Source: Eubacteriales bacterium
Lineage (GTDB): Bacteria > Bacillota > Clostridia > Oscillospirales > CAG-272
NCBI GenBank assembly: GCA_045120465.1
Contig: JBGVEW010000035.1
Span: forward strand, 212-64,211
Length of the DNA: 64,000 nucleotides
Reading direction: 5' to 3'
A program made the translations under genes and the position numbers. The stretch's first letter is position 1, and each line of letters starts with the position of its first letter. The notes beneath the pieces were generated by a model that searched no databases, had not been told where the DNA came from, and saw only the letters and a program-made list of their open reading frames with translations. Below are positions 23,944 through 63,455 of the stretch, piece by piece.

Positions 23944-23979
23944 CCGTTGCTCCTTTCAGACTACTGCTTGCATCACGCG

Positions 23980-26736: not shown

Positions 26737-26752
26737 CTTGTGTCAGCTCCTG

Positions 26753-30626: not shown

Positions 30627-30698
30627 GATTTTTTCTACCTTACATTATTTATTTTTTTATTTTTTGTTTTGGGGTTATATCATCAATCCATAGGATTG

Positions 30699-31844: not shown

Positions 31845-31878
31845 TGCAATCTTTCATTTCTATGTAAAAATTAGGTGG

Positions 31879-31967: not shown

Positions 31968-31973
31968 GAATGA

Positions 31974-40253: not shown

Positions 40254-40358
40254 ACTGTCTAACCTCCATTTATTTTTTTCGCTTGCGCGAATGGGTTACG
40301 TAATGATAAAATGCATAGATTGCGAATGTACTACGTAAAAGGGGGGGCGGGAGAGGGC

Positions 40359-40628
40359 TCAGAGCAGGAAAAGATAGAGCAACAACGCCGCCAGAGCAAA
40401 AGCTCCGACCAAGCAGAGCAGCATCGGTCCGTAAACCGAAAACGCCGCCGCGATCATCGCGCGCTTTTCTCGGAAATTGAAGCTGACGTAACGCTTTCTC
40501 TGCTCGTCAAACGCTTCCTGTTCCTCGGGAGTTCTCCCGTGCAAAGCCGCCATCGAGTACACGGTATCCCCCGTGTCCTCGTAATAGACGACCTTGCGTT
40601 TTTTCTTCTTAGATTGTTTTTCTTTCAT
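40359..40628 (-). CDS. small membrane protein (89 aa), unknown function
   Basis: Its ATG overlaps the preceding ATPase stop (ATGA at 40628-40625). It has a lysine-rich N-terminus and a C-terminal TM helix MLLCLVGAFALAALLLYLFLL. Confidence 0.5.
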   Translation of the reverse strand: MKEKQSKKKKRKVVYYEDTGDTVYSMAALHGRTPEEQEAFDEQRKRYVSFNFREKRAMIAAAFSVYGPMLLCLVGAFALAALLLYLFLL

Positions 40629-41671
40629 GCTTCGGGAGTTGCCTCGGGAGCATCGGGGGGATTCCCACCCTCACACAAGTGGCAGGCAACGAAATGTCCG
40701 GGTGCGACCTCGGTCATTTGCGGAGCTTCCTCACGGCACCGATCGGTGCAGTACTTGCAACGGGTATGGAATTTGCATCCCTTGGGGGGATTGGTGGGGC
40801 TGGGAAGCTCGCCTTCCAGCGCCACGGGGTCGGATTTGTGATGCGGATTTGCCACGGGAACTGCGGAGAACAGCGCCTTGGTGTAAGGATGCTGTGCGTT
40901 GGTGCAGATCTCCTTGGTCGAACCCATCTCTACAACGTTTCCGAGATACATGACCGCGATCTCATCCGAGATGTACTTGACGACCGAGAGGTCGTGGGAA
41001 ATGAACAGATAGGACATTCCCTCTTCTCTCTGCAGCTTTTTGAGCAGGTTGATGATCTGTGCCTGAATGGACACGTCAAGTGCCGAAACGGGCTCGTCAC
41101 AAATGACCAGCTTGGGCTTTACCGCCAAAGCACGCGCGATGCAGATTCTCTGACGCTGACCGCCCGAAAACTCGTGCGGATAGCGATCGTAGTAATGCTC
41201 CTGCAAACCGCAACGCTTCATGATGGTACGAACGTAGCTTGTGACCTCGTTTGCGGGAACGACGTTGTGCACGCGTACCGCTTCACCAATGATCTCGCCA
41301 ACCGTCATACGGGGGGGCAAGGAGGAGTACGGGTCCTGGAAAATGAGCTGCAGCTCGGTGCGGAGCTTAGAAAGTCCGCGACGGTTCAGCTTTGCCAGAT
41401 CGTAGAACTGATCCTTTCCGTTTGCGTCCGTGGTCTTATAAAGAGCACTTCCCTCGGTAACGTCGTACAAGCGGAGAATGGTACGCCCGAGCGTGGTCTT
41501 ACCGCAACCGGATTCTCCTACGATACCAAGCGTTTTGCCGCGTTCCAGATCAAAGGAAACGCCGTCAACAGCCTTTAGGAATGCGGTGGGATGACCGAAC
41601 ATATCCTTTTTGACGGGAAAATGCTGCTTCAGTCCCTTGACTTGCAGAATGTAATCCTTTTCTTCCATCAT
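40625..41671 (-). CDS. peptide ABC transporter ATP-binding protein (OppF/DppF type)
   Basis: Walker A is GESGCGKTT, signature is FSGGQRQR and Walker B is [14 protein letters not shown]-terminal oligopeptide-transporter domain is present. Confidence 0.9.
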
Positions 41672-42843
41672 TCCTCACCTTTCTCCTCGTCGTACAGGTG
41701 GCAGAACACGCTGTGCGTCTCGGTAATCTTGATCTCTCTGGGATACGTGCCCGCGCACTTTCCGCAACGGCGATTACATCTTCCCTTGAAGAGACACTCG
41801 TCGGGAATATTGATGGGGTTGGGCACGTTTCCGGGGATGCTGTAAAGCTCATCCGCCGCATCGGATTCCAAGGAGGGCTTTGCCTTTTGGATACCGATGG
41901 TGTAGGGGTGCATAGGATTATCGAAAATCTCATACACGGTTCCCTTTTCCACGATCTTACCCGCGTACATGACCACTACGTAGTCTGCCATCTCGGCAAC
42001 GACGCCAAGGTCGTGCGTGATCAGCATAACCGATGCGCCGCACTCCTTTTGCACCTTTTTCAGCAGGCGCAAAATTTGGCTCTGAATGGTAACGTCCAAC
42101 GCCGTGGTGGGCTCGTCGGCAATGATCAGCTTGGGGTTGCCCGTCAAGGCAATCGCAATCATGACTCTCTGACGCATACCGCCCGACAATTGGTGCGGAT
42201 AGTAGTTTACAATGGTTTCGGGCATCGGAATACCAACCAAAGAAAGCATTTCGATCGCCTTCTTTTCGGCATCCGCCTTGGTTGCCCCTTCGTTGTGGAG
42301 CAAATAGACCTCCTCGATCTGATATCCCACGGTAAACACGGGATTGAGGCTGGTCATCGGCTCCTGGAAGATCATGGAGATATCCTTACCTCTGATGCGG
42401 CACATCTCGTTGGTGGGCATCTTGGTAATGTCGTAGCATATGTTGTTGCCGTTCTCGTCCGTACCGAGGTCGCCGGTGTTAAAACGGATCTCTCCGCCAA
42501 CGACCTGACCCTGCGGTGCCTGAACCAACTGCATGATCGAAAGGCTGGTTACGCTCTTTCCGCATCCGGATTCTCCAACCAGACCGATGATCGAATCCTT
42601 GGGAACGTTGAACGTAATGCCGTTTACCGAACGGACAACGCCGTTATCGGTAAAGAAGTGGGTCTGCAGATTATCGATCTCCAAAACGTTGTCGTTCGAC
42701 TGCATCACGGTGGTGTAATCTGCGGGAGTCACCTTGCGACGCTTGATCTTTTCAAGGCGCTTCATTTCGCGAAGATTGCTTTTGATGATCGCGCGGCTCT
42801 CTTTCAAGGTGAGCGTATTGGGATTCTTTTGTTTCTTTGCCAT
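41668..42843 (-). CDS. peptide ABC transporter ATP-binding protein (OppD/DppD type)
   Basis: ATG at 42843 lies 5-7 nt after AGAGGTG; the ORF-track start at 42852 is a GTG. Walker A is GESGCGKSV, signature is LSGGMRQR and Walker B is LIIADEPTTALD. The stop overlaps the next start. Confidence 0.9.
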   Translation of the reverse strand: MAKKQKNPNTLTLKESRAIIKSNLREMKRLEKIKRRKVTPADYTTVMQSNDNVLEIDNLQTHFFTDNGVVRSVNGITFNVPKDSIIGLVGESGCGKSVTSLSIMQLVQAPQGQVVGGEIRFNTGDLGTDENGNNICYDITKMPTNEMCRIRGKDISMIFQEPMTSLNPVFTVGYQIEEVYLLHNEGATKADAEKKAIEMLSLVGIPMPETIVNYYPHQLSGGMRQRVMIAIALTGNPKLIIADEPTTALDVTIQSQILRLLKKVQKECGASVMLITHDLGVVAEMADYVVVMYAGKIVEKGTVYEIFDNPMHPYTIGIQKAKPSLESDAADELYSIPGNVPNPINIPDECLFKGRCNRRCGKCAGTYPREIKITETHSVFCHLYDEEKGEE

Positions 42844-42848
42844 CCTAA

Positions 42849-43916
42849 TCACCTCTTAGACTTGGGGTCCATTGCGTCACGCAGACCGTCGCCAACAAAG
42901 TTGAACGCCAGAACCGCGATAACGATCAGAATACCCGCCGGAATCCAAAGTGTCGGATAGGACGCCATCGTAACGGGGTCGGTAGAGGAAGAGATCATCG
43001 TTCCCCACGCGGCGTACGGGAGCGGGATACCCAGACCCAGGTAGCTCAACGTGGACTCGTAAAGAATGATGCTTCCCAGACCCAGCGTCATCGACACGAT
43101 CAGCTGCGGCATGATGTTGGGAACGAGGTGCTTGAAGATTCGTCTCCAAACGGGAATACCCATAACCTCGCAGGCAACGATATACTCCTGCTCACGCAGG
43201 TAGAGGATCTGACCTCTTACCATTCTCGCGGTGCCGCTCCAACCGAAAATGGTTAATATGACCATCAAATAGTAAATTCTCATGTGGGATTCGATGCCCC
43301 ATGAATCGATAACCGCGGATGCGATCAAAAGGATCGGCAGCGTGGGGATACAGTTGAGAATATCCACCAAACGCATGATCAGCTGGTCGATCTTGCCGCC
43401 AAAGTAACCCGAAATACCGCCCAGAATGACACCGAGGATGGTCTCCAGAATAACGACCACAAATCCCAAGGTCAGGGAGATACGTCCACCGTACATCAAA
43501 CGGATGAACACGTCAAGTCCCTTTTCGTCGGTTCCGAGAGGGTGAGAAGAAGAGGTCGGCGCGTACGCGTTGATATCTACCGTGTCCTCAAAGAACTGAT
43601 AGGTCTTGATGGGGTTGCCGTTGGCGTCAACGGTATCGATCCAATACCCCGAACGCTTTACGGTAGGGGTATGGTCGGTATCGGTTTCATACCATTCATA
43701 GCCGAACAGATGCATAACAGGGGGACCTGCAAAGGCGAATACAAAGAGTGCCACGAGCATGATAAGCCCAATCAGAGAGAGGCGGGAGCGGAAGAACCGC
43801 CGCGCTACCATCTGCGCGGGTGACATCTCCTTGTAATGCACCTCTACTTCAACTTCCTCGAGCGCATCCGTCGGATCTGTTCTTTTATCCATAGTTTCGT
43901 CCATAATTTTCTCCAT
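42849..43916 (-). CDS. peptide ABC transporter permease (OppC/DppC type)
   Basis: Typical BPD_transp_1 permease with an OppC N-terminal region. The start is ambiguous: ATG at 43916 or ATG at 43904 preceded by GGAGAA. Confidence 0.85.
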   Translation of the reverse strand: MEKIMDETMDKRTDPTDALEEVEVEVHYKEMSPAQMVARRFFRSRLSLIGLIMLVALFVFAFAGPPVMHLFGYEWYETDTDHTPTVKRSGYWIDTVDANGNPIKTYQFFEDTVDINAYAPTSSSHPLGTDEKGLDVFIRLMYGGRISLTLGFVVVILETILGVILGGISGYFGGKIDQLIMRLVDILNCIPTLPILLIASAVIDSWGIESHMRIYYLMVILTIFGWSGTARMVRGQILYLREQEYIVACEVMGIPVWRRIFKHLVPNIMPQLIVSMTLGLGSIILYESTLSYLGLGIPLPYAAWGTMISSSTDPVTMASYPTLWIPAGILIVIAVLAFNFVGDGLRDAMDPKSKR

Positions 43917-43933
43917 ATCGTTTGTCGGAATGC

Positions 43934-45304
43934 TTATTTGGAAAGCTTGACGCGCGGGTCAACAACCGCATACATCAGGTCGGAGAAGAGGGTTCCGATG
44001 ACCGTAAGGACTGCCAAGAACATATTGTAGCCCATGATAAACGGAATGTCTCCCTGCTGAAGTGCTTTATACGCCAAGCGCCCGATTCCGTCGATACTGA
44101 ACACTTCCTCGGTGATCATCGCGCCGCCAAACAGAGACGGCAGGATGCCCGCGAGAAGCGTCATCAAGGGGATCATGGTGTTGCGGAAGGCGTGTACGTA
44201 AATGACCTTCTTTTCGGAAAGTCCCTTGGAGCGTGCCGTACGGATGTAATCCGAGTTGAGCACCTCCAGCATATTGGTTCTGGTATAACGCATCAATCCA
44301 CCGATGGAAAGCACGACCAAAACCGTCATGGGGAGCACCAAGTGCCACAGCATGTCGCCAAGGTGTGCAAGACCTACGCTTGCGGACGCGCCGCTGACAA
44401 GACCCGATGCGGGGAACCAGCCAAGCCAGCTCGAAAAGATCTTGATAAGCAATGCCGCAAAGAAGAAGGAAGGAAGCGAAATACCGATCATGGTAACGAC
44501 CGTTACCGTGTAGTCACGCACCGAGTACTGATGCGTTGCGCTCGTGATACCCATGGGGATCGCGATGGCAAACTGCAGTACCAATGCGACGAGCGAAATG
44601 AAGAAGGAGATCCACATATGCTCGGCAATGACGGTGGAAACGGGCATCTGATACAAGAAGGATTGACCCATATCACCGCGGAGCATATTTCCGAGCCACG
44701 AGAAGTAACCCGAAAGGACTGCTCCGAATTTTTCCCAAACGGTAGCCGTTTTGTAAGAAACATCAAGGCTGTACGCCCTTGCGATGCTTGCATCGGGACG
44801 GAATTCGATCGCGCCGTCATTTGCCGTCCAGATACCCTGCTCCAAAGTTTTGGGATGATCCGCGTCGCGTTTATCCACGATGCGGTAAGCAAGCTCCTTT
44901 GACTTGGTGATTTCGATGATAAGAGAAACACCATCGAGCTGGCTGTTTGTGTACGTTCCGTCGTAAAACTCTTCAGAGGAAAGGAGCTTGCCCGTAAAGT
45001 CCTCGTATTCGGACACCTTGGTATCGGTACGGAAAACGGTTCCCGCGGAAATGACAACGTTCCCTTCCCCATCCTTTACTTCATTCAATTCGACGTCCAG
45101 ATATGCATCCGGCATATAAAGACCGTATCTCTTTTTAAAATCGTCAAGCTGTTCGCGGGTGATGGTTCCCTGCCCGAGCTGAGCCGAAAACTTTGTTTCC
45201 AAATAGTTTTGCGGCATCAGTCGAACAAGAAAGTAAATGATAATGGATACACCCAACAGAATGATGATTGAAAGACCGATTCGTTTCAGTATATATTTGA
45301 TCAT
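43934..45304 (-). CDS. peptide ABC transporter permease (OppB/DppB type) with a ~150-aa extracytoplasmic insertion
   Basis: Starts MIKYILKRIGLSIIILLGVSIIIYFLVRLMP (canonical OppB start). A long hydrophilic loop follows before the conserved permease core ..DYIRTARSKGLSEKKVIYVHAFRN.. Confidence 0.88.
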   Translation of the reverse strand: MIKYILKRIGLSIIILLGVSIIIYFLVRLMPQNYLETKFSAQLGQGTITREQLDDFKKRYGLYMPDAYLDVELNEVKDGEGNVVISAGTVFRTDTKVSEYEDFTGKLLSSEEFYDGTYTNSQLDGVSLIIEITKSKELAYRIVDKRDADHPKTLEQGIWTANDGAIEFRPDASIARAYSLDVSYKTATVWEKFGAVLSGYFSWLGNMLRGDMGQSFLYQMPVSTVIAEHMWISFFISLVALVLQFAIAIPMGITSATHQYSVRDYTVTVVTMIGISLPSFFFAALLIKIFSSWLGWFPASGLVSGASASVGLAHLGDMLWHLVLPMTVLVVLSIGGLMRYTRTNMLEVLNSDYIRTARSKGLSEKKVIYVHAFRNTMIPLMTLLAGILPSLFGGAMITEEVFSIDGIGRLAYKALQQGDIPFIMGYNMFLAVLTVIGTLFSDLMYAVVDPRVKLSK

Positions 45305-45328
45305 TCTGATATCCCTCGAATTCGAGTT

Positions 45329-47863
45329 TTAGTTGGTTTCCTTCAGACTGACTTCCCAGATTCTGCTCAGAGGTCCGTTGTAAGGAGTGAGCTCGCTCTT
45401 GGGAGTGAGGGTCGATTCGTCAATGACGTTGGAGTTGTAGGCAAACAGGTCACTTCTCTGGTAGGTAGGCAGCTCAACCGCCAGCTCCATAACCAGATCC
45501 AAAGCCTGCTTGTAATACTCGATACGCTTCTTTTCATCGAGGGTCTCTCTTGCCTTGTCGATGATATCGGAGAGCTGCTTGATGAGTGCCAGCTCGGTAT
45601 CGTACTTATTACCGTTGTTTGCCTTGATTGCGCGGTAACCCCAGTTTGCGGTAGAGCCCGCGGTGGAGTCCATGTGGTAAACCTGATACATATCAGGGTC
45701 AACGCCCGCTCCCCATGCTGCTGCCCAAACGGTAAGGTCACCGTTGTTGAGCTTGGAGAGCGCGTTGATATCGGTCTTGACCTCAACCTTAAAGCCGTGC
45801 TTATTCAGAATATCCGCAGCCTGCTTGAGGGAGTTGTAAGCGGGGTGGTCGGTAGTATCGCCTGCAATGGTGAAGGTGTACTTACAAATGTCGTTACCCT
45901 TCTGGTAGATACCCTCGGCGTTCTTGGTGTAACCCGCCTGCTTTACCAGTTCCTCGCACTTTGCGCCCGTGGAGTCAAATGCGTAGTACTGACCCTCGAT
46001 GTCCTTAGGATATGCCCAGGATGCCATGGTCATAGGACGGGAGATGGAATAGGAGTAACCAAAGTAGTACTCAACCGCGAGGTTGGTGTTAACCGCGTGC
46101 ATGATCGCACGTCTGACGTTGATGTTGGGAACCTTTTCGGCGTTGATACCGATATAACCGTAACCGTTGGTCATAACGAAGGAGCTGGAGAATCCGTCAC
46201 CCTTCTTTGCCTCAAGGCTATCGATGTTCTCCTGCTTGCAGGCAGGCTCAACGAAGTGAACGCCGCCGGAGTACAGGGTATCGAGCATGAGGTTGGTGGA
46301 AACGACCTGATAGTTGATATACTTGATCTTAACGTCGAACATGAAGTGGCTGTTACGCTCGAAATATACGACGTTGTTTGCCTTGAAGGTACCTGCGCTG
46401 ACTGCGGAGGAGTCGCCGGTACGGGTGGTTGCCTTGTAAGGACCTGCGCCTACGGGAACACCGATCTTGTTGGGGTTCTTAACAACCTCATCCTGGAACT
46501 CGATGCTACCGAATTCCACGCCGAAGTTCTTCTCGTAGTCAAACTTCTTGATCTGTGCCTCGTTGGAGTAGTAGTACATAGGAGCAACGGTAAACGCGAA
46601 GTTCCAGATTGCCTTGGGGTCAACCTCGTTGATCTCAATCTCAAGGACCTCGTTACCCTTGGTTACGCTGCCGTCCTTAGCAAGCGTAGGAACGCCGTAC
46701 TCCACACCGTTAACGGTTACGCTCTCCTTGCGGTTTGCGTAGCGGATACCGGAAATGCTTTCAATTCTGTCCTCATCCTCGATGTTTTCAAAGTATGCCT
46801 GCTTTTCGAGGTAGGAGAAGTAGGTCAACAGCTCGGTAGCGGTTGCCCAGTAGGTGATAACCTCATCTACACGGTTGGGGAAATAGGTGTTGTAAACCGC
46901 GTTGATCGCCTGCTCCTCGGACCAGTTCTTGCACTGCTCCTCGTCAACGCTGTAGTCAAACTTGTATTCCTTCTTGTTCCAGGAAATGAAACCCTCGTTG
47001 TAAAGGAATGCCTCAGAGTCGGTAGTAAGAGTAACCTTCTTGCCGTTCTTATCGGTAAATACGATGTCCTCTGCGGTACCCTTTGCGTAGGTGTAGTCCT
47101 TCTTCAGCTCTTCCTTGAAGTACTTCTTAGCCAGCTCGTAGTCGTTGATGATCGTGCCATACTCGGGAAGCTCGGTCTTGAAGTCGTTCATAACAGCGGT
47201 AAGAGCATTAACCAGTTCATCTTCCTTCAGGCTCTTGCCCTCGTTATCGTCATAAACGATCTCAAGGCAGTCGCGGAGTCTCTGAACACGGTCAGCCGCG
47301 AGCGCGATGAACTGCTCGTCAAAGCTATCCTGCTCGTTTTCGTTCTTACTCTGGGTACGGTACTCATCCAAACCTACGATATCGGTGGAGTAGATGGTTG
47401 CGCTACCGTAGTAAGCGGGGTCAAGATAAACGTAAAGGTTGAACAGAACGTCCTTCATCGTAAGAGGAGAACCGTTGCTGAACTTGAGATTGTTCTTGAG
47501 AACGAAACGGTAAACCGTGGTCTTGGTATTACCCTGCGCATCCTTTTTGGGGATGGCTTCGTAGTCCAGAACGACGCACGCCTCGTCCTTACCGTATGCG
47601 ACCTTACCGTCCTTATCGGAGGAAAGCATCGAGATCTGCGTCATACCGACGATCTGACCGTCGGGACCGGAGGAGGAGTAGAAGGGGTTGAATACGCCGT
47701 CAAGCTCCGAGGTGGAAAGCACCAAACGGGTACTTTCGTTGTCGATAACTGCGCCTGTTCCGCTGGGATCACTCGGGTCGTTTCCGCAGCTCGCAAATAC
47801 TGCGGCAAGCGTTGCGATCGCCAGGATCAGAGCAAGCAGCTTTGTGCTGTTTCTTTTCATCAT
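45329..47863 (-). CDS. family-5 (OppA/DppA-type) ABC substrate-binding lipoprotein, enlarged (844 aa)
   Basis: Lipobox in ..LAAVFASCG and AAGGAG upstream. SBP_bac_5-like core (..GPYK.., ..PDMYQVYH..) with large insertions. Confidence 0.85.
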   Translation of the reverse strand: MMKRNSTKLLALILAIATLAAVFASCGNDPSDPSGTGAVIDNESTRLVLSTSELDGVFNPFYSSSGPDGQIVGMTQISMLSSDKDGKVAYGKDEACVVLDYEAIPKKDAQGNTKTTVYRFVLKNNLKFSNGSPLTMKDVLFNLYVYLDPAYYGSATIYSTDIVGLDEYRTQSKNENEQDSFDEQFIALAADRVQRLRDCLEIVYDDNEGKSLKEDELVNALTAVMNDFKTELPEYGTIINDYELAKKYFKEELKKDYTYAKGTAEDIVFTDKNGKKVTLTTDSEAFLYNEGFISWNKKEYKFDYSVDEEQCKNWSEEQAINAVYNTYFPNRVDEVITYWATATELLTYFSYLEKQAYFENIEDEDRIESISGIRYANRKESVTVNGVEYGVPTLAKDGSVTKGNEVLEIEINEVDPKAIWNFAFTVAPMYYYSNEAQIKKFDYEKNFGVEFGSIEFQDEVVKNPNKIGVPVGAGPYKATTRTGDSSAVSAGTFKANNVVYFERNSHFMFDVKIKYINYQVVSTNLMLDTLYSGGVHFVEPACKQENIDSLEAKKGDGFSSSFVMTNGYGYIGINAEKVPNINVRRAIMHAVNTNLAVEYYFGYSYSISRPMTMASWAYPKDIEGQYYAFDSTGAKCEELVKQAGYTKNAEGIYQKGNDICKYTFTIAGDTTDHPAYNSLKQAADILNKHGFKVEVKTDINALSKLNNGDLTVWAAAWGAGVDPDMYQVYHMDSTAGSTANWGYRAIKANNGNKYDTELALIKQLSDIIDKARETLDEKKRIEYYKQALDLVMELAVELPTYQRSDLFAYNSNVIDESTLTPKSELTPYNGPLSRIWEVSLKETN

Positions 47864-47879
47864 TACATCTCCTTATTTT

Positions 47880-48977
47880 TTAAGCCTGTGTTTCAGACTT
47901 CTTTTCAATCGTGATATTGGCAGTAAAGTCCGTTACGGTATTCTTGTCGCTCTCCTCATAGAGTGCCTCGTTCAAACGAGGAAGCTCCACATCGGACGCA
48001 ACCACGATCTTACCGTTGACTTGAACGTTTGTAATCTTACAACCGTTCGCTTCTCTTGCCAATGCTGCAACCTTCAGCGTTTTTGCCACGCTCTTGACCT
48101 CAAGGAACTCAAGCGTTACGTTGTCAAAGGTTACGTTGCGGATCTCGGCACCCTCGCCCAGATCCTGGAATACGGATGCGGAAGGCATAATCGCCGTACC
48201 AAACTGTTCAACGGTAAAGTTTTCCACCTTATGTCCGTTGCCCTCGAAAACATTGGAGAACGTTCTCTTGAAATCAAGCGTCTTGCCTTGGCAATCGATG
48301 TCACTCAAAAGATAGATGTTTCCATTTCCGATCGCGTTGTTCAGGGTGTCATAGCTGTCAACCAACAGCCAATCGCCCTGAATGTAGTCAACGTAAATGC
48401 GAATGTCCGTATCAACCGCGCCACCGGGATGCTTGGTTGTGAAATCCCATGCGTCGGTCAATTCTTTATTGGAGTAGTAACCGCTGGGGGTATAACCCTT
48501 GCGTGTCTTGGCAAACTCTCTCCAGTCCTCAAACACCTCATCGGCCGCAACCGAATAGCTGCCAAGCTGAATTTCCTTATCGCCGTCGGTATAGCAGACC
48601 GTAAACGTGTAAACAATCTCCTTTTCCCAACCGGCATAAAGGGTCAGTACTTCTTTGTTGATTTTATCCTTTGCAAAATCCCACTTTTGATCAGCCTTAC
48701 ATTCTGCGCTCGTGTACCAACCGGTAAAACGGTATCCCGAACGAAGGATCTCATAGTTGTTATACGTGGTCGGGTCGAGAATCAAGGAGCCCGGCTCGTA
48801 TGCGTAATTGATCTTGGTGGTAACGACGGAGGTCATGATATCCAGCTTTCCTTGATTGAGATCAAAGGTTGCGACATACATGCCGTCCAGATTTTGCGCG
48901 GCATTGCCGCACCCCGACAAAAGAATTGTCAGGGTGACGGTCAAGAGTGCCAAAAGGATCAGATGTTTTTTCTTCAT
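47880..48977 (-). CDS. lipoprotein with InlB-B/Flg_new repeats and a GLUG-type module start
   Basis: Lipobox in ..LTILLSGCG. Contains GYRFTGWYTSAECK...LTLYAGW and GYTPSGYYSNKEL, then FSNVFEGNGHKVENFTV. Its ATG overlaps the protease stop (ATGA at 48977-48974). Confidence 0.7.
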   Translation of the reverse strand: MKKKHLILLALLTVTLTILLSGCGNAAQNLDGMYVATFDLNQGKLDIMTSVVTTKINYAYEPGSLILDPTTYNNYEILRSGYRFTGWYTSAECKADQKWDFAKDKINKEVLTLYAGWEKEIVYTFTVCYTDGDKEIQLGSYSVAADEVFEDWREFAKTRKGYTPSGYYSNKELTDAWDFTTKHPGGAVDTDIRIYVDYIQGDWLLVDSYDTLNNAIGNGNIYLLSDIDCQGKTLDFKRTFSNVFEGNGHKVENFTVEQFGTAIMPSASVFQDLGEGAEIRNVTFDNVTLEFLEVKSVAKTLKVAALAREANGCKITNVQVNGKIVVASDVELPRLNEALYEESDKNTVTDFTANITIEKKSETQA

Positions 48978-51900
48978 TCTTCACCTTGCTCCTTTTCCTG
49001 CGTATCCTGCGTATCCTGCGCATCCTGTGCGTCTTGCACGTCCTGCGCATCGTTTTGCTCTTCCTCGACCTCCTCGGCAGCCTCAGCTTCCTGAGCGGTC
49101 TCGGTCGTCTCAGCAACCTCAGCCTCGGGCTCTGCCTCGATCATCGGCTGCGCCTGCTGCTTGCGCTTTTTACCGACGCTCAAACCAATGCCAACACCAA
49201 CACCCGCCAAAACGATTACCGCGCCGACAACGATCAGGATGATCGCCCAAACGGCCATACCGTCATCGGGAGTCGGTTCCTCGTCGGTTACGGGAGGCGT
49301 GTCGGGAGTATTGTCCTCGGGGATGTCTTCCTCGGGGAAGTGCTCCGCAAAGGTCTTGTCAAAGTCGGGAGTCATACCCATTGCCTTGGTAAGATCAGCG
49401 ATCTTTGCGGTCAGAACGCTTGCGTTTTCAACCGCCTGCTGCTCTTCTGCGCTCAGGCTGTTGAAGAATGTGCTTGCATCCTTGACTGCATTGAAGGAGT
49501 ACTCCGTGCAATCCATATCGTACAGGTGATTGATCTTATCCTCTGCAACGTCAACGTTGTATTCGCTGCGTGCCTTAAGGAAACGGTCGATCAATGCCTT
49601 TTCTACGGTTGCAAGCTCATCTGCCTGACCTTCGAGTGCGTTGTACGCATTGATCGCGGCATCGACCAGTGCTTTGTCAAAGCGGTCTGCCGTTTCGGGA
49701 AGCTTTTTAACAGCCTCGATAAACGCCAGTGCAAACTTGCCGGTGGTAGCGCCGGAGGTCTCCTCGCTTGCCTTGAAGTATGCCCGGTAGAGAACGCTGT
49801 CGTAGCCCTCGTTGTTATCGGGCAGGACGTAAGTCAAGTCGGATGCACCCTTGGACGCTACAACGTCAATGAAGTTCATGTAGTACAAAGGCATTGCAAC
49901 CTGATCGACTTCTCTGTAGTAGTAATCGTAACGGTAGAGCTTATCGAAATTGGGATACTCCTCAAGCGTTTCGGGAGTGATCTTGATCTCTTCACCCGTA
50001 ACGGTGCCCTCGAGGTGAGGTGCGTAGTAAGAATGGAAGACAACGGTCTTGAGATTCTCGCACGCATAGAATGCGTAGTTACCGATGCTCTTCATGGACT
50101 CGGGAAGGATCAGCTTCTCGATAAACGTGTTGTTCATCGCCGCGGTGTACTCGATTCTCACGGTACCGTCGGCAACCGCAAACTCGGTATTCTCCTTTGC
50201 AACGGGGTAAACGGACAGCACGTAGCCGTTGTTGACAACCGTGTAAAGAACGCCGTCGCGGATCATGATATGATCGGATTCGAAATCGTAAACCTTTTCA
50301 CCATCTACCATTGCGTAGAAGGTCTTGAAGGTTGTGCTCGAATCAAAGATGCTGAACTCAACGGTCTGGAGCGTGGGAGAAACCTCAAACTCTACTATGG
50401 AGGTCAGTGCAAACGCGCCAAAGCCGAGGTGCTCGAGCTTGGGAGCGGATACCGTGGTCAGATTTTGACAACCCGCAAACGCCTGATCGTAAATGTGGGT
50501 CGCTTCGGGAGCATATACGGACTGCAGATAGAACGCACCGCCCGTGTTTTCGGTTCCCTCCGCAAATGCCATCGAACCGATCTCAACGGCAGAGGAAAGA
50601 TCCAGATGCTCAGCGTGAGGCGCATCGTAGAATGCACCCATACCGATACGAACCACGTGAGACAGATCAATATCGGTCAAAGCGAGACATGCATAGAAGG
50701 TCAGATCCTCGATATCGGTCAGATTCTCGGAAAGAACGACACGCTGCAAGGATTGGCAAGCCGCAAATGCAGCACCGCCGATCTTGGTAACGTTCGAAAG
50801 ATCGATCTCGGTCAGATAAACGCATCCGTAGAAGCCGTATTCACCGATCTCGCGGAGAGCGGGCATATAAACGGTAGCAAAGCCTGCACCGCTGACAGCG
50901 TTTTCATCATCGCTGGGAGCAAATGCGTTGTCACCGATCACCTCAAGGCGTTCTGCGCTGAACGTCTTCAAGTTAGGACAGTCTGCAAAGCAAGCCTCGC
51001 CGATTTTGGTTACGTAGGGCATGTTTACGTCGGTCAGGGACAGACAATAGTAGAACGCATATGCGCCAAGTTCACCGGTCATCTTGGTAAAATCGATCGA
51101 AATCAGATCTTCGCATCCGTAGAATGCAGACTCGTCAACGGTAACACCGTCGCCCAGGAGGTTTACGACCTCAACGCCGCTTCCGCAGAATGCGTAAGCA
51201 CCGATCACGGCAGCCGCACCGAGCGTTACGCGCTCCAGGGACGTGCATCCGTAGAAGGCACCGATGCCGATCTCTACACCGTTTTGAGGGAGATTTACCT
51301 CAACCAAGCCGGTATTTTCGAATGCGAACCCACCAACGCGGGTCACGTTTTCGAGATTGATGGAAGTAAGCTTTTTGGATTCGCAGAATGCCATTTCACC
51401 GATTTGAACGTCACGTGCGGGAAGCACAACGCTCTTCAGTGCGTCACAGCTTGCAAACGCCGCCATGCCGATGGACTTGATGAGAGAGCCCTCTGCAAAG
51501 GTAACGGACGTCAGATAACGGTTTGCGGAGAACGCGCCGTCACCGATCTCCTTAACATGTGCGGGAACCTCATAATTGCCGAGGTTTGCATCGGGCAGTG
51601 CCAGAATCAGACGAGTGCCGTCCTTGCTGAACACGATGCCGTTTTCAACCTTGTAAAGCGCAGAAGCTTCCACGTTGAAGCTCATACCCTTGATGCCCTC
51701 AAACGTGCTCATGCCCGCAGACTCGATCTCGCTGTTTTCAGCAAAGATCAGCTCGGTCAAGCCACTGCTTGCGAATGCCAGATCACCCAAAACGAATGCG
51801 GAATTGGGAAGCGTCAGGCTTTCGAGATCGGTACATTTATAGAACGCACCGTATGCGATTTCCTCACACGCACCGCCAAAGATAACGGTTTCAAGGTTCT

Positions 51901-54900
51901 TACATCCGTTGAACGCCTCCTGACCCAAGTAGGTCAGATCGTTCTTGAACTCAACGCTCGTCAGCTTGGTGCAGCCCTTGAACGCGCTGTCCGGAACGGT
52001 ATCGCAATAGAGCACGATGCTCTTGATGGGAGTGTTTTCAAACATTTGCTCGGCGATACGGGTCTTTTCGCCAAGTACGACCGTTTCCAGCTTGGAGCAG
52101 TTCGCAAACGCTGCAACGCCGCTGCGGGAAAGGTTGGTCAGGATCGCCTCGCTGATACGCGTTTCTGCAAACGCCTTATCACCGAGAGCATAGATCGAAG
52201 AAAGATCAATGCCGCCCAGATCCTTACAGGTCAAGCTTTCGCACTGGTAGAATGCCTTGTTTGCAATGACGGTAACGTTTTCGAGGTTGATGTTTTCCAA
52301 GACCTCACAGCCCTCGAACGCGCTCTCACTAATGGTCTTACAGCTCTTGGGAAGCGTTACGCTACCAAGCTTATGACAACCGTAGAATGCGAATTTTTCA
52401 ATGGTTTCAACGTCCTCGGGGATCACTACGGAGGTTACCGTATCGTTTCCGAGTGCAGTCTTCTTATCGTCAAAATCGTAGTTTCCGTCCTCGTCCGTTT
52501 CAACCTCTTTCTCGTTATCGAGATCGTAATGGCTGAACGCGAACGCGCCAATCATCATAATACCCTCGTCACCGGGGATCACGACGTCGCCGCCCCAACC
52601 CTTGTAAGCAAGGAGCGTGCGTCCCTCGATCACGAATTCGCTCTTGACCTCAACCGACAGACGAGCCGCCAAAAGCGAGGGCTTACCGTCAATGAGGATC
52701 TGCAGAGTGATTCTTGCCTTACCCTCAGCCTGTGCGGTAACGACACCGTTTTCATCAACGGTTGCCGCCTTGGGATTACTCGTGGTCCACTTCAATTCGT
52801 ATTTATCGGGATCCAGATACCAAGGATCGAGCTGATAGTAAAGCTGGATCTTTTCGGAAGGATAGAATGCAAGACTGGAGCTGCCGCCAAAATAGTTGAT
52901 CGCACCCGTGACTCCGATTTCGGAATAATCGATGTCGGAATTGAAAGCAAACAACGTCTTATAGGAAGTAAATTTCAGATCCTCGACCTGCATCTTGTCG
53001 GGATTTTCCACCACCTGATCACTGACGTTTACAACCAACGTCTTGTAAAGAGGCTTTTCGGTGCCGTCGGTCGGATCGATAAACGTCCAATCCTTACCCG
53101 TAACGGTAATGGTTGCCTGACCTGCCTTACGTGCCTCGATCTGACCGTCCTGAATGGCAACGACCGTTTCATCGGAGGATGCCCAAGTCAGGTTCTGGAG
53201 GTAACCGGTTTCGATCACGTCTGCGTCCTTGCGAGCAAGGAACGTGGTCAAATCAAAGATCTGGTTGATATCCAGAGACAACGCAGAATCAAGGAATTCC
53301 AGCTCGGTGCTCTCGGTTTCGGGGAACGGAACGTAAGCGATACCGGAGTTCATTGCGTAGTCGTCGATGTAGAAGCAAATACCCTCGGGAGTGGAGGAAT
53401 TCTTCACCAGGTCGATGTAATCGGTGATTTCAACCGCAACCTTGGTAACCTTTCCTCTCTCTTCCTGATAGATCGGGATCGGATTGCCGCAAAGCGAGGA
53501 GTAGGTCTTTTTGATCGTGCCGTCCTCGGTGGTCTCACCCTGCGGATCGTCATAAACGATGATGGGGCGCAGAGACATCGCGTAATGGTTATCGTAAACC
53601 ATCAAATCAACGTAGTAGCGATTCTTCTTCATCGCCTTATCGTACTCGGTGCGGAAGGTCGCATCGGTAATGGAGGGTGCCTCGTAGTCGATGTAGAAGG
53701 AGAAGGAGTAAGTATCCTTGGAATTGCGGTTTTCACCGTCCCAGTCGAGCTTTGCGGACATCGTGACCTCAAAACGCTGGTTGTTGTATCCAAATACCTC
53801 ACCCGTCTGGTAATTTGCCATTGCCAAGCGGATCTGTGCGGCGTAGGGATACGGAGAACCGATAAAGTGCGACTTGTAGCAGTTATACTGGGTCTCGGAC
53901 CATACTTCCTCACCCGTAGTCGCGTTTTTGATCGAAATATTCAGCTCCTTCGCGCCGCGCAAAAGTCCGGTAAAGATTCCGTAAATACCGTTAATCGCAT
54001 CCGCGTAGTAAGAAACCGCTGCCTTATCCTCGGTTGCGGGAATCGGCGTGTACTTGCTCTCGTCCATTGCGTAAACGTAGCTGCCGAGAGGAAGCACGTA
54101 GTCGTAATAGTAGCTACCCAGGGGGGTGGTTGCGTAGTAATCCGCCTTGATCTTGTCCTCGTCGTCGATCGCGTTGTTGTGTGCCTCGGTCTCTACCTCG
54201 TAGTAATCAAGGTCGAAAATCGGAGCCTCACCCCAGTCGCCGTAGAAAGCAAGGAAGGGTGCGTTGAGGTCAACGCCGTTTGCATCGGTGCTGTCGAAGG
54301 TCAAAAATCCTTCTACGTACATACCGTTTTTAAAGCTTGCGTTCAGGTAAGACTTATCCGCCGCAGAAAGCGTCAGAGTAACCGTTACCTTTGCGGTCTT
54401 ACCCGCCTCAACCGAAACGACACCGTTTTTGAGGGTACCGTTTTCAACCGAATACTCGGCCGTGTTGGAGAGGATGTATCCCATCTCCGCTACGTACTCG
54501 GGATCGGAGGTGGAAAGCGTCTCGGTCATGGTAACGTTACCGATGGTGTAGCTGAGTGCCTTGTCGGAGATGTTTTTGAGGTTGATGCTCATCGTGTAAA
54601 CGCCGGTACGCTTGGGATCGTCAAAGAGCTCCAGCTTGGTCTTACCGATACCATCTACAAAGAGGTATGCGGGGGTCGTGGTTGCCTTTACGATATCCGC
54701 AATACCCGCTCCCTGCTTTCTGGGGGAGTAGGGATTGCCCTTGTGGTCAAGCGCGATGGTCGCGGTGGACATGCAGAGCTGGTTGACCAGGTCTCTGACC
54801 TGCTCAGGCTTCATCTCGGGATATTTTTCCTTGACGTACTGACGAATCAGGACGGTAATACCGCACATATTGGGGGCTGCCATACTGGTACCGCTCAATT

Positions 54901-56776
54901 TGTCGTATCCGCCGCCGGGAATTGCCGAGAGAATGTTACCGCCGTGTGCGGTGATCTCGGGCTTGAGCGTCAGGTCGGGATTAGGTCCCCAGCTCGAGAA
55001 GTCACTCATGAAGGGGCCTGCCTGATTTTCGTACTTGAAGGTGATCTTACCGGTCTTTTGCTTTGCCATGAGATCACCGTCGTCCTTACCGATGGAGATA
55101 ACGGGGATCTTGACGTCGTTACCGACCGTCATAATGATATCACCGAATACGTTGTTGTAAATGATGATTGCTGCAGCACCCGCCTCGTAAGCGTACTGCA
55201 TCTTTTCCTCAAAGGTGATGTCACCGCGGCGTACCAGCGCGATCTTGCCCGCAATGTCAACGCCCTCGTAGTTAATGGGCATACCCACGCCGGGGATTGC
55301 AACGTAATCGTAATCCTTAGGCTGTCCGGGAGCCACTCCGAGCATTGCAAAGAAATCGTACTCCTTTGCGTTCTGGTTTACGGACTCGTGGAAGAAGATC
55401 TCGTCCTTGCCGTTTGCCAGCATATACTTGTCCTTGTTACCGTTGATGGAAGCAACGGACATTGCAGCCATGTAGGTAGAGGGAGCACCGACCGTAGCAG
55501 AGTCGGGGTTGCCGCTCTTGTTGGTGTTACCGCCCTCGGAGCCGTAACCGCTGCTGTAATCGTTGGAAGCAGCAACCAGCAGAGAAATACCTGCTTTTTC
55601 GATGTTATCGTACAGGGTGTTCTTGTATTCCTCATCTACCTCACGGGTAAATCCGCAGGAGGTACCCAAGCTCATGTTGATCGCGTCAACGCCGAGGATG
55701 ATCGAGTCCTCAAGAGCCGCGAGAATATCACCGTCCTCAGCGCCTGCCTCGTAGTCGCTGAACACCTTCATGATTGCGAACTGCGTATCGATTGCAACAC
55801 CCGTAATGGTTTCGTCCATACCGCCGATGATGCCCGCAACGTGCGTACCGTGCTCGTTTGCAAAGGGCATGATGTTTGCGTCCTTATCCGCATAGTCGTA
55901 ACCGAATGCGATCTTGTTACCCGTGATGTTACCGTAGTAAACCTCACGCGCCTCAAGGGAGTTGTCGTAACCGTATGCGCGAGTCTCGGTCAGAAGTGCC
56001 TCAATCTTGTCACGGTCGTACCGAGGGGATGCAACCTCGTGCGTCGTGAACGCGGTGTGCGTGTAATCGCACCCCGTATCCAGAATTGCCACGATGGTTT
56101 TCTCACCGGTGAACTTGATGTCACCGCTGTTGAAGATACCCGTGTCGTAAACGTTAACGGGGTTTTCAACCGCAATGGCAGGCTCGTAGGTGTTGGAGAG
56201 GATCACGCGCTCAACGCCTTCGATCTTGGTAATTGCCGCCAACTGCTCGTAGGTGGTGGAAACGTACGCACCGTCCGCTACGTGGAAGTAGTTGTACTTG
56301 ACCTCGGTGATCAGCCCTGCCTCTTCCAAACGGGAGAGCACCTTTTTCTGGTTCGCCTCCAGCTTTGCCTTCAACTCGGCAGCCTTGGCGGACACGCGGT
56401 ATTCCGCGTAGGTCATGTCCTGTCGATCCTTCGAGAAGGAGGAGACCAGCGAATCATCCGAGAAGGTCAGGATAACCTCGACCTTGCCGTGAAGCTCGTA
56501 GTCCTCGATCTTCTTGAGCAGATCCTGATTGATCGAGCCGAGAAAATCCTTTCTCAGTTGAGCGATCGCCTCATCGCTGTCAAACTTTCCGATACCGCCG
56601 GAAAGCAGTTCTTCCAGTGTCGTGGGCTTGCCGATCAGGGTAGAGATTCCCGAGACCAGAGCCGAACAGCTCAAAGCCAGGGTCTGAATCATCATTGCCA
56701 TGATCAGAAGCCATGTCAGAAGCGGCTTCATCAGTCGCTTCATCCGCGAATGTCGTGTAGTGTTTGTGTTGTGCAT
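48974..56776 (-). CDS. giant cell-anchored subtilisin-family (S8) serine protease with PA domain, Big_2 domains, BspA-type LRR arrays and a C-terminal TM anchor
   Basis: Catalytic motifs are AILDTGCDYTH (Asp), HGTHVAGIIGG (His) and SGTSMAAPNMCG (Ser). The PA insert reads GKIALVRRGDITFEEK. Big_2 motifs are SSDETVVAI and TSNPKAATV. About 1,100 aa of LRRs are followed by the TM helix WAIILIVVGAVIVLAGVGVGIGL. The preferred start is the ATG at 56776 (GAGGAAAA upstream); the ORF-track start at 56818 is a TTG. Confidence 0.9.
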   Translation of the reverse strand: MHNTNTTRHSRMKRLMKPLLTWLLIMAMMIQTLALSCSALVSGISTLIGKPTTLEELLSGGIGKFDSDEAIAQLRKDFLGSINQDLLKKIEDYELHGKVEVILTFSDDSLVSSFSKDRQDMTYAEYRVSAKAAELKAKLEANQKKVLSRLEEAGLITEVKYNYFHVADGAYVSTTYEQLAAITKIEGVERVILSNTYEPAIAVENPVNVYDTGIFNSGDIKFTGEKTIVAILDTGCDYTHTAFTTHEVASPRYDRDKIEALLTETRAYGYDNSLEAREVYYGNITGNKIAFGYDYADKDANIMPFANEHGTHVAGIIGGMDETITGVAIDTQFAIMKVFSDYEAGAEDGDILAALEDSIILGVDAINMSLGTSCGFTREVDEEYKNTLYDNIEKAGISLLVAASNDYSSGYGSEGGNTNKSGNPDSATVGAPSTYMAAMSVASINGNKDKYMLANGKDEIFFHESVNQNAKEYDFFAMLGVAPGQPKDYDYVAIPGVGMPINYEGVDIAGKIALVRRGDITFEEKMQYAYEAGAAAIIIYNNVFGDIIMTVGNDVKIPVISIGKDDGDLMAKQKTGKITFKYENQAGPFMSDFSSWGPNPDLTLKPEITAHGGNILSAIPGGGYDKLSGTSMAAPNMCGITVLIRQYVKEKYPEMKPEQVRDLVNQLCMSTATIALDHKGNPYSPRKQGAGIADIVKATTTPAYLFVDGIGKTKLELFDDPKRTGVYTMSINLKNISDKALSYTIGNVTMTETLSTSDPEYVAEMGYILSNTAEYSVENGTLKNGVVSVEAGKTAKVTVTLTLSAADKSYLNASFKNGMYVEGFLTFDSTDANGVDLNAPFLAFYGDWGEAPIFDLDYYEVETEAHNNAIDDEDKIKADYYATTPLGSYYYDYVLPLGSYVYAMDESKYTPIPATEDKAAVSYYADAINGIYGIFTGLLRGAKELNISIKNATTGEEVWSETQYNCYKSHFIGSPYPYAAQIRLAMANYQTGEVFGYNNQRFEVTMSAKLDWDGENRNSKDTYSFSFYIDYEAPSITDATFRTEYDKAMKKNRYYVDLMVYDNHYAMSLRPIIVYDDPQGETTEDGTIKKTYSSLCGNPIPIYQEERGKVTKVAVEITDYIDLVKNSSTPEGICFYIDDYAMNSGIAYVPFPETESTELEFLDSALSLDINQIFDLTTFLARKDADVIETGYLQNLTWASSDETVVAIQDGQIEARKAGQATITVTGKDWTFIDPTDGTEKPLYKTLVVNVSDQVVENPDKMQVEDLKFTSYKTLFAFNSDIDYSEIGVTGAINYFGGSSSLAFYPSEKIQLYYQLDPWYLDPDKYELKWTTSNPKAATVDENGVVTAQAEGKARITLQILIDGKPSLLAARLSVEVKSEFVIEGRTLLAYKGWGGDVVIPGDEGIMMIGAFAFSHYDLDNEKEVETDEDGNYDFDDKKTALGNDTVTSVVIPEDVETIEKFAFYGCHKLGSVTLPKSCKTISESAFEGCEVLENINLENVTVIANKAFYQCESLTCKDLGGIDLSSIYALGDKAFAETRISEAILTNLSRSGVAAFANCSKLETVVLGEKTRIAEQMFENTPIKSIVLYCDTVPDSAFKGCTKLTSVEFKNDLTYLGQEAFNGCKNLETVIFGGACEEIAYGAFYKCTDLESLTLPNSAFVLGDLAFASSGLTELIFAENSEIESAGMSTFEGIKGMSFNVEASALYKVENGIVFSKDGTRLILALPDANLGNYEVPAHVKEIGDGAFSANRYLTSVTFAEGSLIKSIGMAAFASCDALKSVVLPARDVQIGEMAFCESKKLTSINLENVTRVGGFAFENTGLVEVNLPQNGVEIGIGAFYGCTSLERVTLGAAAVIGAYAFCGSGVEVVNLLGDGVTVDESAFYGCEDLISIDFTKMTGELGAYAFYYCLSLTDVNMPYVTKIGEACFADCPNLKTFSAERLEVIGDNAFAPSDDENAVSGAGFATVYMPALREIGEYGFYGCVYLTEIDLSNVTKIGGAAFAACQSLQRVVLSENLTDIEDLTFYACLALTDIDLSHVVRIGMGAFYDAPHAEHLDLSSAVEIGSMAFAEGTENTGGAFYLQSVYAPEATHIYDQAFAGCQNLTTVSAPKLEHLGFGAFALTSIVEFEVSPTLQTVEFSIFDSSTTFKTFYAMVDGEKVYDFESDHIMIRDGVLYTVVNNGYVLSVYPVAKENTEFAVADGTVRIEYTAAMNNTFIEKLILPESMKSIGNYAFYACENLKTVVFHSYYAPHLEGTVTGEEIKITPETLEEYPNFDKLYRYDYYYREVDQVAMPLYYMNFIDVVASKGASDLTYVLPDNNEGYDSVLYRAYFKASEETSGATTGKFALAFIEAVKKLPETADRFDKALVDAAINAYNALEGQADELATVEKALIDRFLKARSEYNVDVAEDKINHLYDMDCTEYSFNAVKDASTFFNSLSAEEQQAVENASVLTAKIADLTKAMGMTPDFDKTFAEHFPEEDIPEDNTPDTPPVTDEEPTPDDGMAVWAIILIVVGAVIVLAGVGVGIGLSVGKKRKQQAQPMIEAEPEAEVAETTETAQEAEAAEEVEEEQNDAQDVQDAQDAQDTQDTQEKEQGEE
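48997..49050. repeat. 9-nt in-frame tandem repeat (6 units) at the 3' end of the protease gene
   Basis: cctgcgtat cctgcgtat cctgcgcat cctgtgcgt cttgcacgt cctgcgcat, encoding DAQDVQDAQDAQDTQDTQ in the cytoplasmic tail. Confidence 0.75.
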
Positions 56777-57253
56777 GCTTTTTTCCTCGCATTTTTGAAT
56801 TTCGCCGCCTCGGCACAATCATTTCGGTCCAATTGTTTGAGGGTTTGAGCGCGTAACTTTCACCCCAATTTTTCCGATATGCCAATGACGACATAAATAT
56901 ACATTAAAGATTATACCACAAGATCCGTATTTTTTCAAGTCCTTTATATATAAATAGAATACATTTTCACTTTGTATCAAATTTTTACGTATTTCATCCA
57001 CCATTTTCGTCGTTTTTTACAAAAATATTTTTTCATTTCCGATGCATGAACCGCAAAAGTATGCACCTCCGCGTCTCTTTCCTGTAAGAAAATGCAAGTT
57101 ATGCACTCGGCACTTGCAAAACGCACCTTCCGATGCATGTAAAAAGAGAACAAAAAAACGGCCCTCTCAAAGAGGCTTTTGAGAGAACCGCTTGTAAAAA
57201 AGCGACGAAAAGCTTTTGGTGGGAATTTGCGTTTTTGATGGGATCAACCCAAG

Positions 57254-57293
57254 CAAAAAAACACGGAGGTGTCTCAAATACGAGACACCTCCG
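57254..57293 (-). terminator. rho-independent terminator of the 57316-58053 gene
   Basis: Stem cggaggtgtctc / gagacacctccg (57264-57293) is followed on the minus strand by TTTTTTT (57254-57260). Confidence 0.75.
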
Positions 57294-57315
57294 CGCGATG
57301 GAAGAGACGGCAAAA

Positions 57316-58053: not shown

Positions 58054-58268
58054 ACTCCTTTCCGAGCAAGTTCCATTTACCACATTATACACCGAACCCC
58101 GTCCTTTTGTCAATAGCTTGTTTCACTTTTTCTCCCGAAAATGTGTTTTTTTTAAAAAAGGCGAGCTAAAAAACCGACAAAAGAGCGGTTTATTTACAAA
58201 ATAATGCTGAAATCCGACCGCGTTTGCTGTATAATAATGTCAACGTACCCTGAAGAGGAGGGCTTCTT

Positions 58269-63295: not shown

Positions 63296-63455
63296 ATAGG
63301 ATCTCCTTTGATTCATTTCTCCCTTCATTATATCACAATTTTTCAAAAAAGTATAGCCCTGTTCGAAAAAATTTTTCTCGCCCCCCTTTTTTGACAAAAT
63401 AAAGAGCTTTCGCAGGGTATAATAAGAGCAAACCGCATACAAAACGGAGGAATTG

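Follow-up and report, generated by a model that had tools for sequence, protein, structure and literature searches.

We find that a giant subtilisin-type surface protease and a complete importer of the oligopeptide permease (Opp) type are encoded in one gene cluster on the minus strand of a 64,000-nt stretch of DNA from Eubacteriales bacterium (GTDB lineage CAG-272; contig JBGVEW010000035.1, positions 212 to 64,211), hereafter called the window. By the coordinates of the open reading frames (ORFs), eight genes span 40359-56776 with an intergenic spacing of -4 to 24 nt, and RNA contigs add a ninth gene. An earlier note, made from the sequence, had described the eight genes, their spacings, the ATGA overlaps and the lack of room for a terminator, and all of these match the coordinates exactly and agree with Pfam, which was used for the domain calls on the window proteins and places the five transporter parts above their gathering scores. 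The note had ended the unit at 40359, and this boundary did not stand. The features of the locus, in window coordinates, are as follows.

57261-57296 and 57156-57193, minus strand: two strong intrinsic terminators of the upstream gene, with 16-bp stems and T runs, forming the upstream operon boundary

56910-56938, minus strand: promoter-like site, TTGAAA, 17 nt and a TG-extended TATAAT, near-consensus (11/12 matches)

48974-56776, minus strand: S8 surface protease, 2600 aa, first gene of the cluster (Pfam)

47880-48977, minus strand: Flg_new lipoprotein, 365 aa, lipobox LSGC, 4-nt ATGA overlap with the protease gene

45329-47863, minus strand: substrate-binding protein (SBP), SBP_bac_5, 844 aa, lipobox FASC, 16 nt after the lipoprotein gene

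43934-45304, minus strand: OppB-type permease, BPD_transp_1, 456 aa, 24 nt after the SBP gene

42849-43916, minus strand: OppC-type permease, OppC_N and BPD_transp_1, 355 aa, 17 nt after the OppB-type gene

41668-42843, minus strand: OppD-type ATPase, ABC_tran and oligo_HPY, 391 aa, 5 nt after the OppC-type gene

40625-41671, minus strand: OppF-type ATPase, ABC_tran and oligo_HPY, 348 aa, 4-nt overlap with the OppD-type gene

40359-40628, minus strand: tail-anchored membrane protein (p89), 89 aa, 4-nt overlap with the OppF-type gene

31974-40253, minus strand: ninth gene, lipoprotein, 2759 aa, lipobox MAAC, with four Flg_new and twelve LRR_5 matches (Pfam and RNA contigs)

31945-31920 and 31910-31879, minus strand: two hairpins 3′ of the ninth gene, the second with a 14-bp stem followed by TTTTT, a probable, leaky operon end

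The start ATG of the OppD-type gene is preceded by a good Shine-Dalgarno sequence, as are the starts of most genes of the cluster. No strong terminator was found within the eight-gene cluster, where weak hairpins occur at the rate expected by chance (26, compared with 20.5 ± 5.1 in shuffled sequences).

Gut metagenomes, bovine ones among them, contain the window sequence, and so do four bovine metatranscriptome runs, from which we obtained unstranded, assembled RNA contigs of related strains that diverge from the window by 1–7%. In three runs the operon contigs end at 56879-56886, 24–36 nt below the -10 element of the promoter-like site, whereas no RNA covers 56887-57292, and the contigs of the upstream gene terminate at 57293-57299, at its terminator, in all four runs. 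Because the 400-nt upstream intergenic region is uncovered in this way, the contigs must represent RNA and not carried-over DNA. Every gene junction of the cluster is spanned by at least one rumen RNA contig, including one of 8082 nt that runs from inside the protease gene to the end of the lipoprotein gene, one of 2703 nt that runs from the protease gene across the lipoprotein gene into the SBP gene, and one of 9821 nt (31347-41167) that runs from the OppF-type gene through the p89 gene and the entire ninth gene. As RNA contigs join the OppF-type gene to the ninth gene, and as the 105-nt gap between the p89 gene and the ninth gene holds no terminator, the unit probably comprises nine genes and about 25 kb. 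Past the hairpins of the ninth gene the RNA depth drops in two runs (X7 and X8), and contigs read through in the other two (X9 and X10). The operon is thus most likely made up of nine genes on the minus strand, from about 56.9 to 31.9 kb, and it has the properties of a single transcription unit, with one promoter, no internal terminator and RNA across all junctions, although internal promoters are possible. The earlier note had proposed a check at the RNA level, with separate transcripts for protease and transporter as the outcome that would speak against its reading; what the rumen metatranscriptomes contain is co-expression from one promoter.

An apparent hole in RNA coverage within the SBP gene, seen at 93% likeness, turned out to be strain divergence and was gone at a lower threshold. 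At 80% likeness many extra rumen RNA contigs from other species stack on the SBP gene (45329-47863), to a depth of up to ~200, and it follows that several co-resident species express SBP homologues of their own in these samples.

The linkage between protease and transporter is well conserved. Relatives of the SBP number more than 2500 at E ≤ 1e-10, and the best 120 are all 830–918 aa long; at E ≤ 1e-30 the family falls into 325 clusters at 50% identity, so that it is both large and uniform in size. One genome per species was scanned, which gave at least 588 species genomes with an SBP relative. The best 80 of these loci were fetched with 10-kb flanks and searched, together with one metagenome locus, by tblastn with the window proteins, and linkage was scored in the 66 that had enough flanking DNA. 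In 63 of these 66 informative loci a protease gene on the same strand adjoins the genes for the lipoprotein, SBP, B, C, D and F components and p89. A linkage confined to the present genome, which the earlier note had named as refuting its reading, is thus clearly not what we see: the linkage is found in both Clostridia and Bacilli/Mollicutes-like bacteria, and it occurs in two gene orders. Type A, the order of the window, reads protease-lipoprotein-SBP-B-C-D-F-small protein (18 loci), whereas type B reads lipoprotein-SBP-B-C-D-F-small protein-protease (45 loci). The gaps are short in both orders, with typically 9–50 nt between p89 and protease in the second, and the linkage persists down to 43% SBP identity. 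In two type-B loci that were annotated by Pfam, the protease carries S8, PA, fn3_5, Big_2 and LRR_5 domains and the lipoprotein carries Flg_new, as in the window. That the linkage survives rearrangement into two gene orders argues for selection on the linkage itself.

The carriers are all metagenome-assembled genomes from the guts of herbivores (including ruminants and rabbit), chicken, mouse and human. One group is labelled as Clostridia (Christensenellaceae, Oscillospiraceae, Eubacteriales) and the other as Bacilli or 'Mollicutes' (Acholeplasmatales, Anaeroplasma, Erysipelotrichaceae and CAG-type bins). A homologue of the ninth gene follows p89 in four loci (L001, L003, L004 and L007), its position being kept only in close relatives. 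In one type-A clade (L009, L011-L013 and L071) the protease and lipoprotein genes are separated by ~600 nt, which leaves room for an extra small gene.

The protease consists, in order, of a signal peptide, a pro-region, an S8 catalytic domain with a PA insert, an fn3_5 domain, two Big_2 domains, ~850 aa of BspA-type leucine-rich repeats (LRRs; LRR_5), a helical region, a membrane helix and an acidic tail. Pfam places Peptidase_S8 (9.7e-41) at residues 224-691, the PA insert at 503-568 and fn3_5 at 727-841, and the LRRs that the earlier note had seen are matched in eight stretches (LRR_5, E 4.5e-127). All four catalytic residues (D233, H309, N405 and S631) are in place and do not vary across 64/64 homologues, and conservation along the protein is highest in the catalytic part, with 50–80% identity versus 30–55% for the LRR region. 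Classification as a cell-envelope proteinase, also proposed at the outset, agrees with the best PDB matches of the protease head, which are C5a peptidase, SpyCEP and a cell envelope proteinase (E 1e-63 to 1e-56, residues 218-882), and at the domain level the protein shows the S8/PA/Fn3 arrangement of the cell-envelope proteinase and C5a-peptidase group (MEROPS S8A). Its best NCBIfam match is the SGO_0316/0317 family, with a score of 266 against a cut-off of 1400.

No LPXTG sorting signal was found near the C-terminus. Instead, one membrane helix (about residues 2503-2527), with KKRK after it, lies at this end of the protease, and this helix is kept in 18/18 full-length homologues. With the catalytic head at the N-terminus and the anchor at the C-terminus, the LRRs fill the stretch between the head and the membrane. 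The earlier note had them bind a macromolecular or host target, but from this position a role as stalk or docking scaffold is just as plausible as one in trapping substrate. The protein is also of the BspA type of LRR surface proteins, its tandem LRR_5 repeats standing in a chain that starts with a signal peptide and is anchored in the membrane. The acidic tail beyond the helix is present only in close relatives, most homologues stopping a few residues past the helix, and we therefore rejected the idea that the tail docks electrostatically with the basic N-termini of the OppD-type ATPase and p89. At the other end of the protein, several type-B proteases (N-termini at 17291 in L015, 17887 in L044, 17647 in L045 and 17393 in L021) have a clear lipoprotein signal with a Cys after the lipobox, and the window protease (start 56776) has a weaker, lipobox-like LALSC in its signal peptide. 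The protease may thus be lipid-anchored at its N-terminus in addition to the C-terminal helix, at least before removal of the pro-region.

The transporter is a complete importer of the Opp/Dpp/Nik type, as the earlier note had it, with SBP_bac_5, two BPD_transp_1 permeases and two ATPases that both carry the oligo_HPY tail typical of Opp/Dpp systems, a composition that corresponds to the PepT family (TC 3.A.1.5). The remark that its components are unusually large also holds, for the SBP (844 aa), the OppB-type permease (456 aa) and the OppD-type ATPase (391 aa). The permease has an enlarged extracytoplasmic loop of ~190 aa between its first and second transmembrane helices, and the ATPase has a basic N-terminal extension of ~50 aa. 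An AlphaFold model of the SBP, built from a 50-sequence alignment (predicted local distance difference test score, pLDDT, 91), has the cluster-C fold with a mostly helical insertion of ~235 aa at roughly residues 165–400. The best profile match of the SBP is AppA of Bacillus subtilis (1.1e-22), and most other profile matches are peptide binders. AppA bound to a nonapeptide (1XOC) is also the best fold match, with a template modelling (TM) score of 0.81 over the target, and lactococcal OppA follows close behind; the fold matches are 474–602 residues long, too short to hold the insertion, and the TM score normalized to the query is about 0.5. As a test of the ligand we considered the Asp that binds the peptide amino terminus in DppA/OppA, but dropped it, since AppA and lactococcal OppA do not follow that rule in a simple way.

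Two further proteins accompany the transporter. The only matches of the 365-aa lipoprotein are to Flg_new in Pfam (3.7e-10) and to internalin B-repeat regions in NCBIfam, and its C-terminal half is uncharacterized; an AlphaFold model made without an alignment was unusable (pLDDT 37). It is present in 68 of 73 loci with a full transporter, always directly upstream of the SBP gene; where the protease gene lies at the other end of the cluster, as in the 45 type-B loci, the lipoprotein gene keeps its place beside the SBP gene and does not follow the protease. The earlier note had compared this lipoprotein to the proteinase maturase PrtM. Neither Pfam nor NCBIfam gives a match to a peptidyl-prolyl isomerase (PPIase) or rotamase domain and, together with the constant adjacency to the SBP gene, this tells us that the lipoprotein is not the equivalent of PrtM. 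The p89 protein has no match in Pfam or NCBIfam. It is composed of a basic N-terminus, a motif Y-x-(D/E)-D/T-G-x-T-(I/V)-Y-S-M (of the type DDG(H/R)T(I/V)Y(S/N)M across homologues), a KE(K/R)xAxIxAA stretch, one membrane helix and a YFWLK-like end. In nearly every locus, even where tblastn did not pick it up, a homologue of ~80 aa follows the OppF-type gene. Judged by sequence and gene position, both the Flg_new lipoprotein and the ~80-aa protein belong with the transporter, as conserved accessories.

With this gene order, these domains, an invariant active site, linkage in two orders, one promoter with continuous RNA and an AppA-like SBP fold in view, we favor the interpretation that the nine-gene operon, with its eight-gene core, is probably a dedicated module for extracellular proteolysis and uptake. 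The giant subtilisin of the cell-envelope proteinase type would be exported and held by its C-terminal membrane helix, with the S8/PA/Fn3 head carried on the long Big_2/LRR_5 region. It would cut environmental proteins of feed, host or microbial origin into oligopeptides, which the lipid-anchored, oversized cluster-C binding protein would capture and deliver to the OppBCDF-type ATP-binding cassette (ABC) importer. In this scheme the solute would be a peptide, the imported peptides would come from the linked protease, and the purpose of the module would presumably be nutritional.

Several observations weigh against this interpretation. The protease is missing in three informative loci, and in two of these a giant protein with Flg_new repeats but without an S8 domain occupies the protease position (17240-21706 in L018 and 933-7346 in L080), from which it follows that the transporter can pair with a non-proteolytic surface protein. 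The survey of linkage, moreover, covers only the 80 loci most similar to the query, of at least 588. On the transporter side, no component reaches an NCBIfam equivalog cut-off (Opp4A scores 87.5 against 650, Opp4B 252 against 450 and Opp4C 308 against 350), and the identity of the SBP to any solved structure is only 11–16%. The nickel binders NikZ and NikA, as well as other binders of non-peptide ligands, score almost as well as AppA and OppA on the SBP fold and, at such low identity, homology does not fix the class of ligand. The unstranded contigs would also allow for internal promoters or overlapping transcripts. Finally, no regulatory signal related to nitrogen was seen: a search for CodY boxes with up to 3 mismatches gave three hits in the window, which is the chance number, none of them near the promoter, and an Rfam scan of 39000-58500 at an E-value threshold returned no riboswitch, T-box or leader.

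A bolder version of the same idea, which we offer as doubtful speculation, is that the locus is a Gram-positive 'protein utilisation locus' whose products form one physical machine. The LRR/Big_2 stalk, the Flg_new lipoprotein, the SBP insertion and the OppB loop would dock with one another, peptides would be passed from the protease head to the importer, and p89 would be an assembly or gating subunit. Such a device might be ancient and vertically kept in gut Firmicutes with reduced genomes, namely Christensenellales-like Clostridia and RF39/Acholeplasmatales-like Bacilli.

Alternatively, the protease and transporter could serve the maintenance of surface proteins. The protease would then process, mature or shed the cell's own LRR and Flg_new giants, the transporter would import a non-peptide solute or recycle fragments, and the linkage would reflect a shared programme of surface assembly. 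It fits this possibility that giant LRR proteins flank the transporter on both sides in the window, that the whole 40-kb minus-strand stretch, with its LRR, Flg_new and Big_3 proteins and a MoxR-DUF58-VWA set, has a similar RNA depth, that the two loci mentioned above have a Flg_new giant lacking a protease domain in the protease position, and that the fold does not settle the ligand class. We nevertheless hold this to be unlikely, as the second giant is kept only in close relatives whereas the protease-transporter pair is kept throughout, as the most conserved region is the catalytic domain and not the LRR part, and as the best neighbors of the SBP, by sequence as well as by fold, are oligopeptide binders.

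A protease directed at one specific target, such as a host factor, a surface protein of a competitor or a signalling peptide, would combine with an importer that takes up the signal peptides released by it, or related ones, for sensing and not for nutrition. The nearest solved and curated relatives of the protease are streptococcal enzymes, with SGO_0316/0317 as the best NCBIfam match, LRR_5 domains are modules for protein-protein interaction, and Opp systems are generally known to import signalling peptides in Firmicutes. However, the NCBIfam match falls far under its cut-off, the operon contains no regulator of the peptide-sensing type, and the module is found in hundreds of species from ruminants, rabbit, chicken and human and is expressed in the rumen, with no single conserved host target being obvious; we therefore regard this alternative as quite improbable. 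That an adhesin-like protease and an ordinary Opp operon simply came to lie next to each other, with no functional tie, is extremely improbable. Surface-protein genes do cluster in this region of the genome, but chance adjacency is contradicted by a pair that lies on one strand, with short gaps, in two gene orders and in distant lineages (63/66 informative loci), and by one promoter with RNA contigs over all junctions.

If the operon is a proteolysis-and-uptake module, its closest functional parallel is the PrtP-PrtM-Opp system of lactic acid bacteria (LAB), for the properties of which we draw on general background and PMC7783315. Both have a surface S8 protease with a PA insert and an Fn3-like domain and a five-component Opp-type importer with a lipoprotein as binding protein, and the pathway from protein over oligopeptides to uptake would be the same. 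In LAB, however, prtP/prtM and opp are separate loci, whereas the window has one operon. PrtM of LAB is a PrsA-like PPIase lipoprotein needed for maturation of the proteinase, in contrast to the Flg_new lipoprotein tied to the SBP; the LAB anchor is of the LPXTG or S-layer type, compared to a C-terminal membrane helix; and the window differs further in the Big_2 and BspA-type LRR_5 domains after the Fn3 domain of the protease, in the enlarged SBP, OppB and OppD, and in the extra conserved membrane protein of ~80 aa. The window system would act in the manner of PrtP and Opp of LAB, yet it falls outside that system.

The individual parts have relatives of their own. With the C5a peptidases ScpA/ScpB, SpyCEP and SGO_0316/0317 (challisin) of Streptococcus gordonii the protease has the S8, PA and Fn3 arrangement in common, but these enzymes are LPXTG-anchored, much shorter and without LRR_5, and no transporter is encoded alongside them. 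The transporter resembles App of B. subtilis with its binding protein AppA, OppA of Lactococcus lactis and Opp4 of Staphylococcus aureus in its cluster-C SBP fold and its oligo_HPY ATPases, and Opp4A, B and C are its best NCBIfam matches; it differs from them in the ~235-aa helical insertion of the SBP, the ~190-aa OppB loop and the sub-equivalog scores. Enlarged Opp subunits are also found in mollicutes, wall-less or reduced relatives of the Firmicutes, and the NCBIfam models MMSYN1_0165-0168 match the window proteins in part. These matches cover only the conserved cores, and the enlargements are therefore not homologous. We know of no S8 protease linked to the mollicute Opp systems with oversized components. 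The LRR region is like those of BspA, LrrA and HupY/LrrG proteins and of internalins, with LRR_5 repeats, a partial HupY/LrrG match and B repeats in the neighboring lipoprotein, but unlike them it is part of a fusion with a protease, in which it separates the catalytic head from the membrane anchor. In its logic only, the arrangement is reminiscent of the polysaccharide utilisation loci that are well known from Bacteroidota, where a surface enzyme, binding lipoproteins and a dedicated importer are co-regulated; those loci use SusC/D and glycans, whereas the window has an ABC importer in a monoderm and a putative protein substrate.

In the full-text literature we found no description of a protease-Opp operon of this kind, and a paper on Tenericutes genomics reports App/oligopeptide uptake in RF39/RFN20 and does not mention a linked protease. 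The operon thus apparently represents a form of the pairing of cell-envelope proteinase and Opp that has not been described before. How much of the nitrogen in the diet reaches the animal, and how much escapes as ammonia, is governed by proteolysis and peptide uptake in rumen and hindgut, and the lineages that carry the operon are abundant and almost entirely uncultured. To us it looks as if uncultured gut Firmicutes widely obtain nitrogen from protein by means of this operon, which, being conserved and expressed, can serve as a specific marker of proteolytic feeding in these bacteria and suggests a mechanism for it that can be tested. It also points to three conserved parts without an assigned function, the Flg_new lipoprotein, the SBP insertion and the ~80-aa membrane protein, and it would give BspA-type LRR regions fused to an enzyme their first functional context.

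The surroundings of the operon contain further genes of note. Directly downstream, at 17881-31844 on the minus strand, lie genes for a Flg_new_2 protein, a MoxR AAA ATPase, a DUF58 protein, a BatA/VWA protein, a second VWA protein, a 929-aa LRR_5 protein and a 1084-aa Big_3 protein. This amounts to a Bat-like MoxR-DUF58-VWA set among giant surface proteins, and its RNA depth is similar to that of the protease operon down to ~16.9 kb. Upstream, at 57293-58113 on the minus strand, a multi-pass membrane protein without a Pfam family is encoded under a perfect promoter of its own (TTGACA-18-TATAAT at 58113-58084), and its gene ends in a strong terminator. Its RNA forms a separate contig (57293-58067), which in the three runs that read both is 2–3 times as deeply covered as the protease operon. 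About 5.4 kb upstream of the operon, an M24 gene of the Xaa-Pro aminopeptidase/prolidase type (62216-63442, minus strand) encodes a possible intracellular partner for imported peptides.

Most genes are furthermore opposed by near-full-length mirror ORFs on the other strand, such as 48947-56848 (plus strand), which has 2633 codons opposite the protease, and 33357-40262 (plus strand). The cause lies in codon usage: the three codons that read as stops on the opposite strand, TTA, CTA and TCA, hardly occur, with counts of 0/0/0 in the 2600-codon protease gene and 8/1/6 in 11049 codons. Although CCA and ATA are likewise scarce, GCA and GTA are frequent, and third-position A is therefore not avoided in general.

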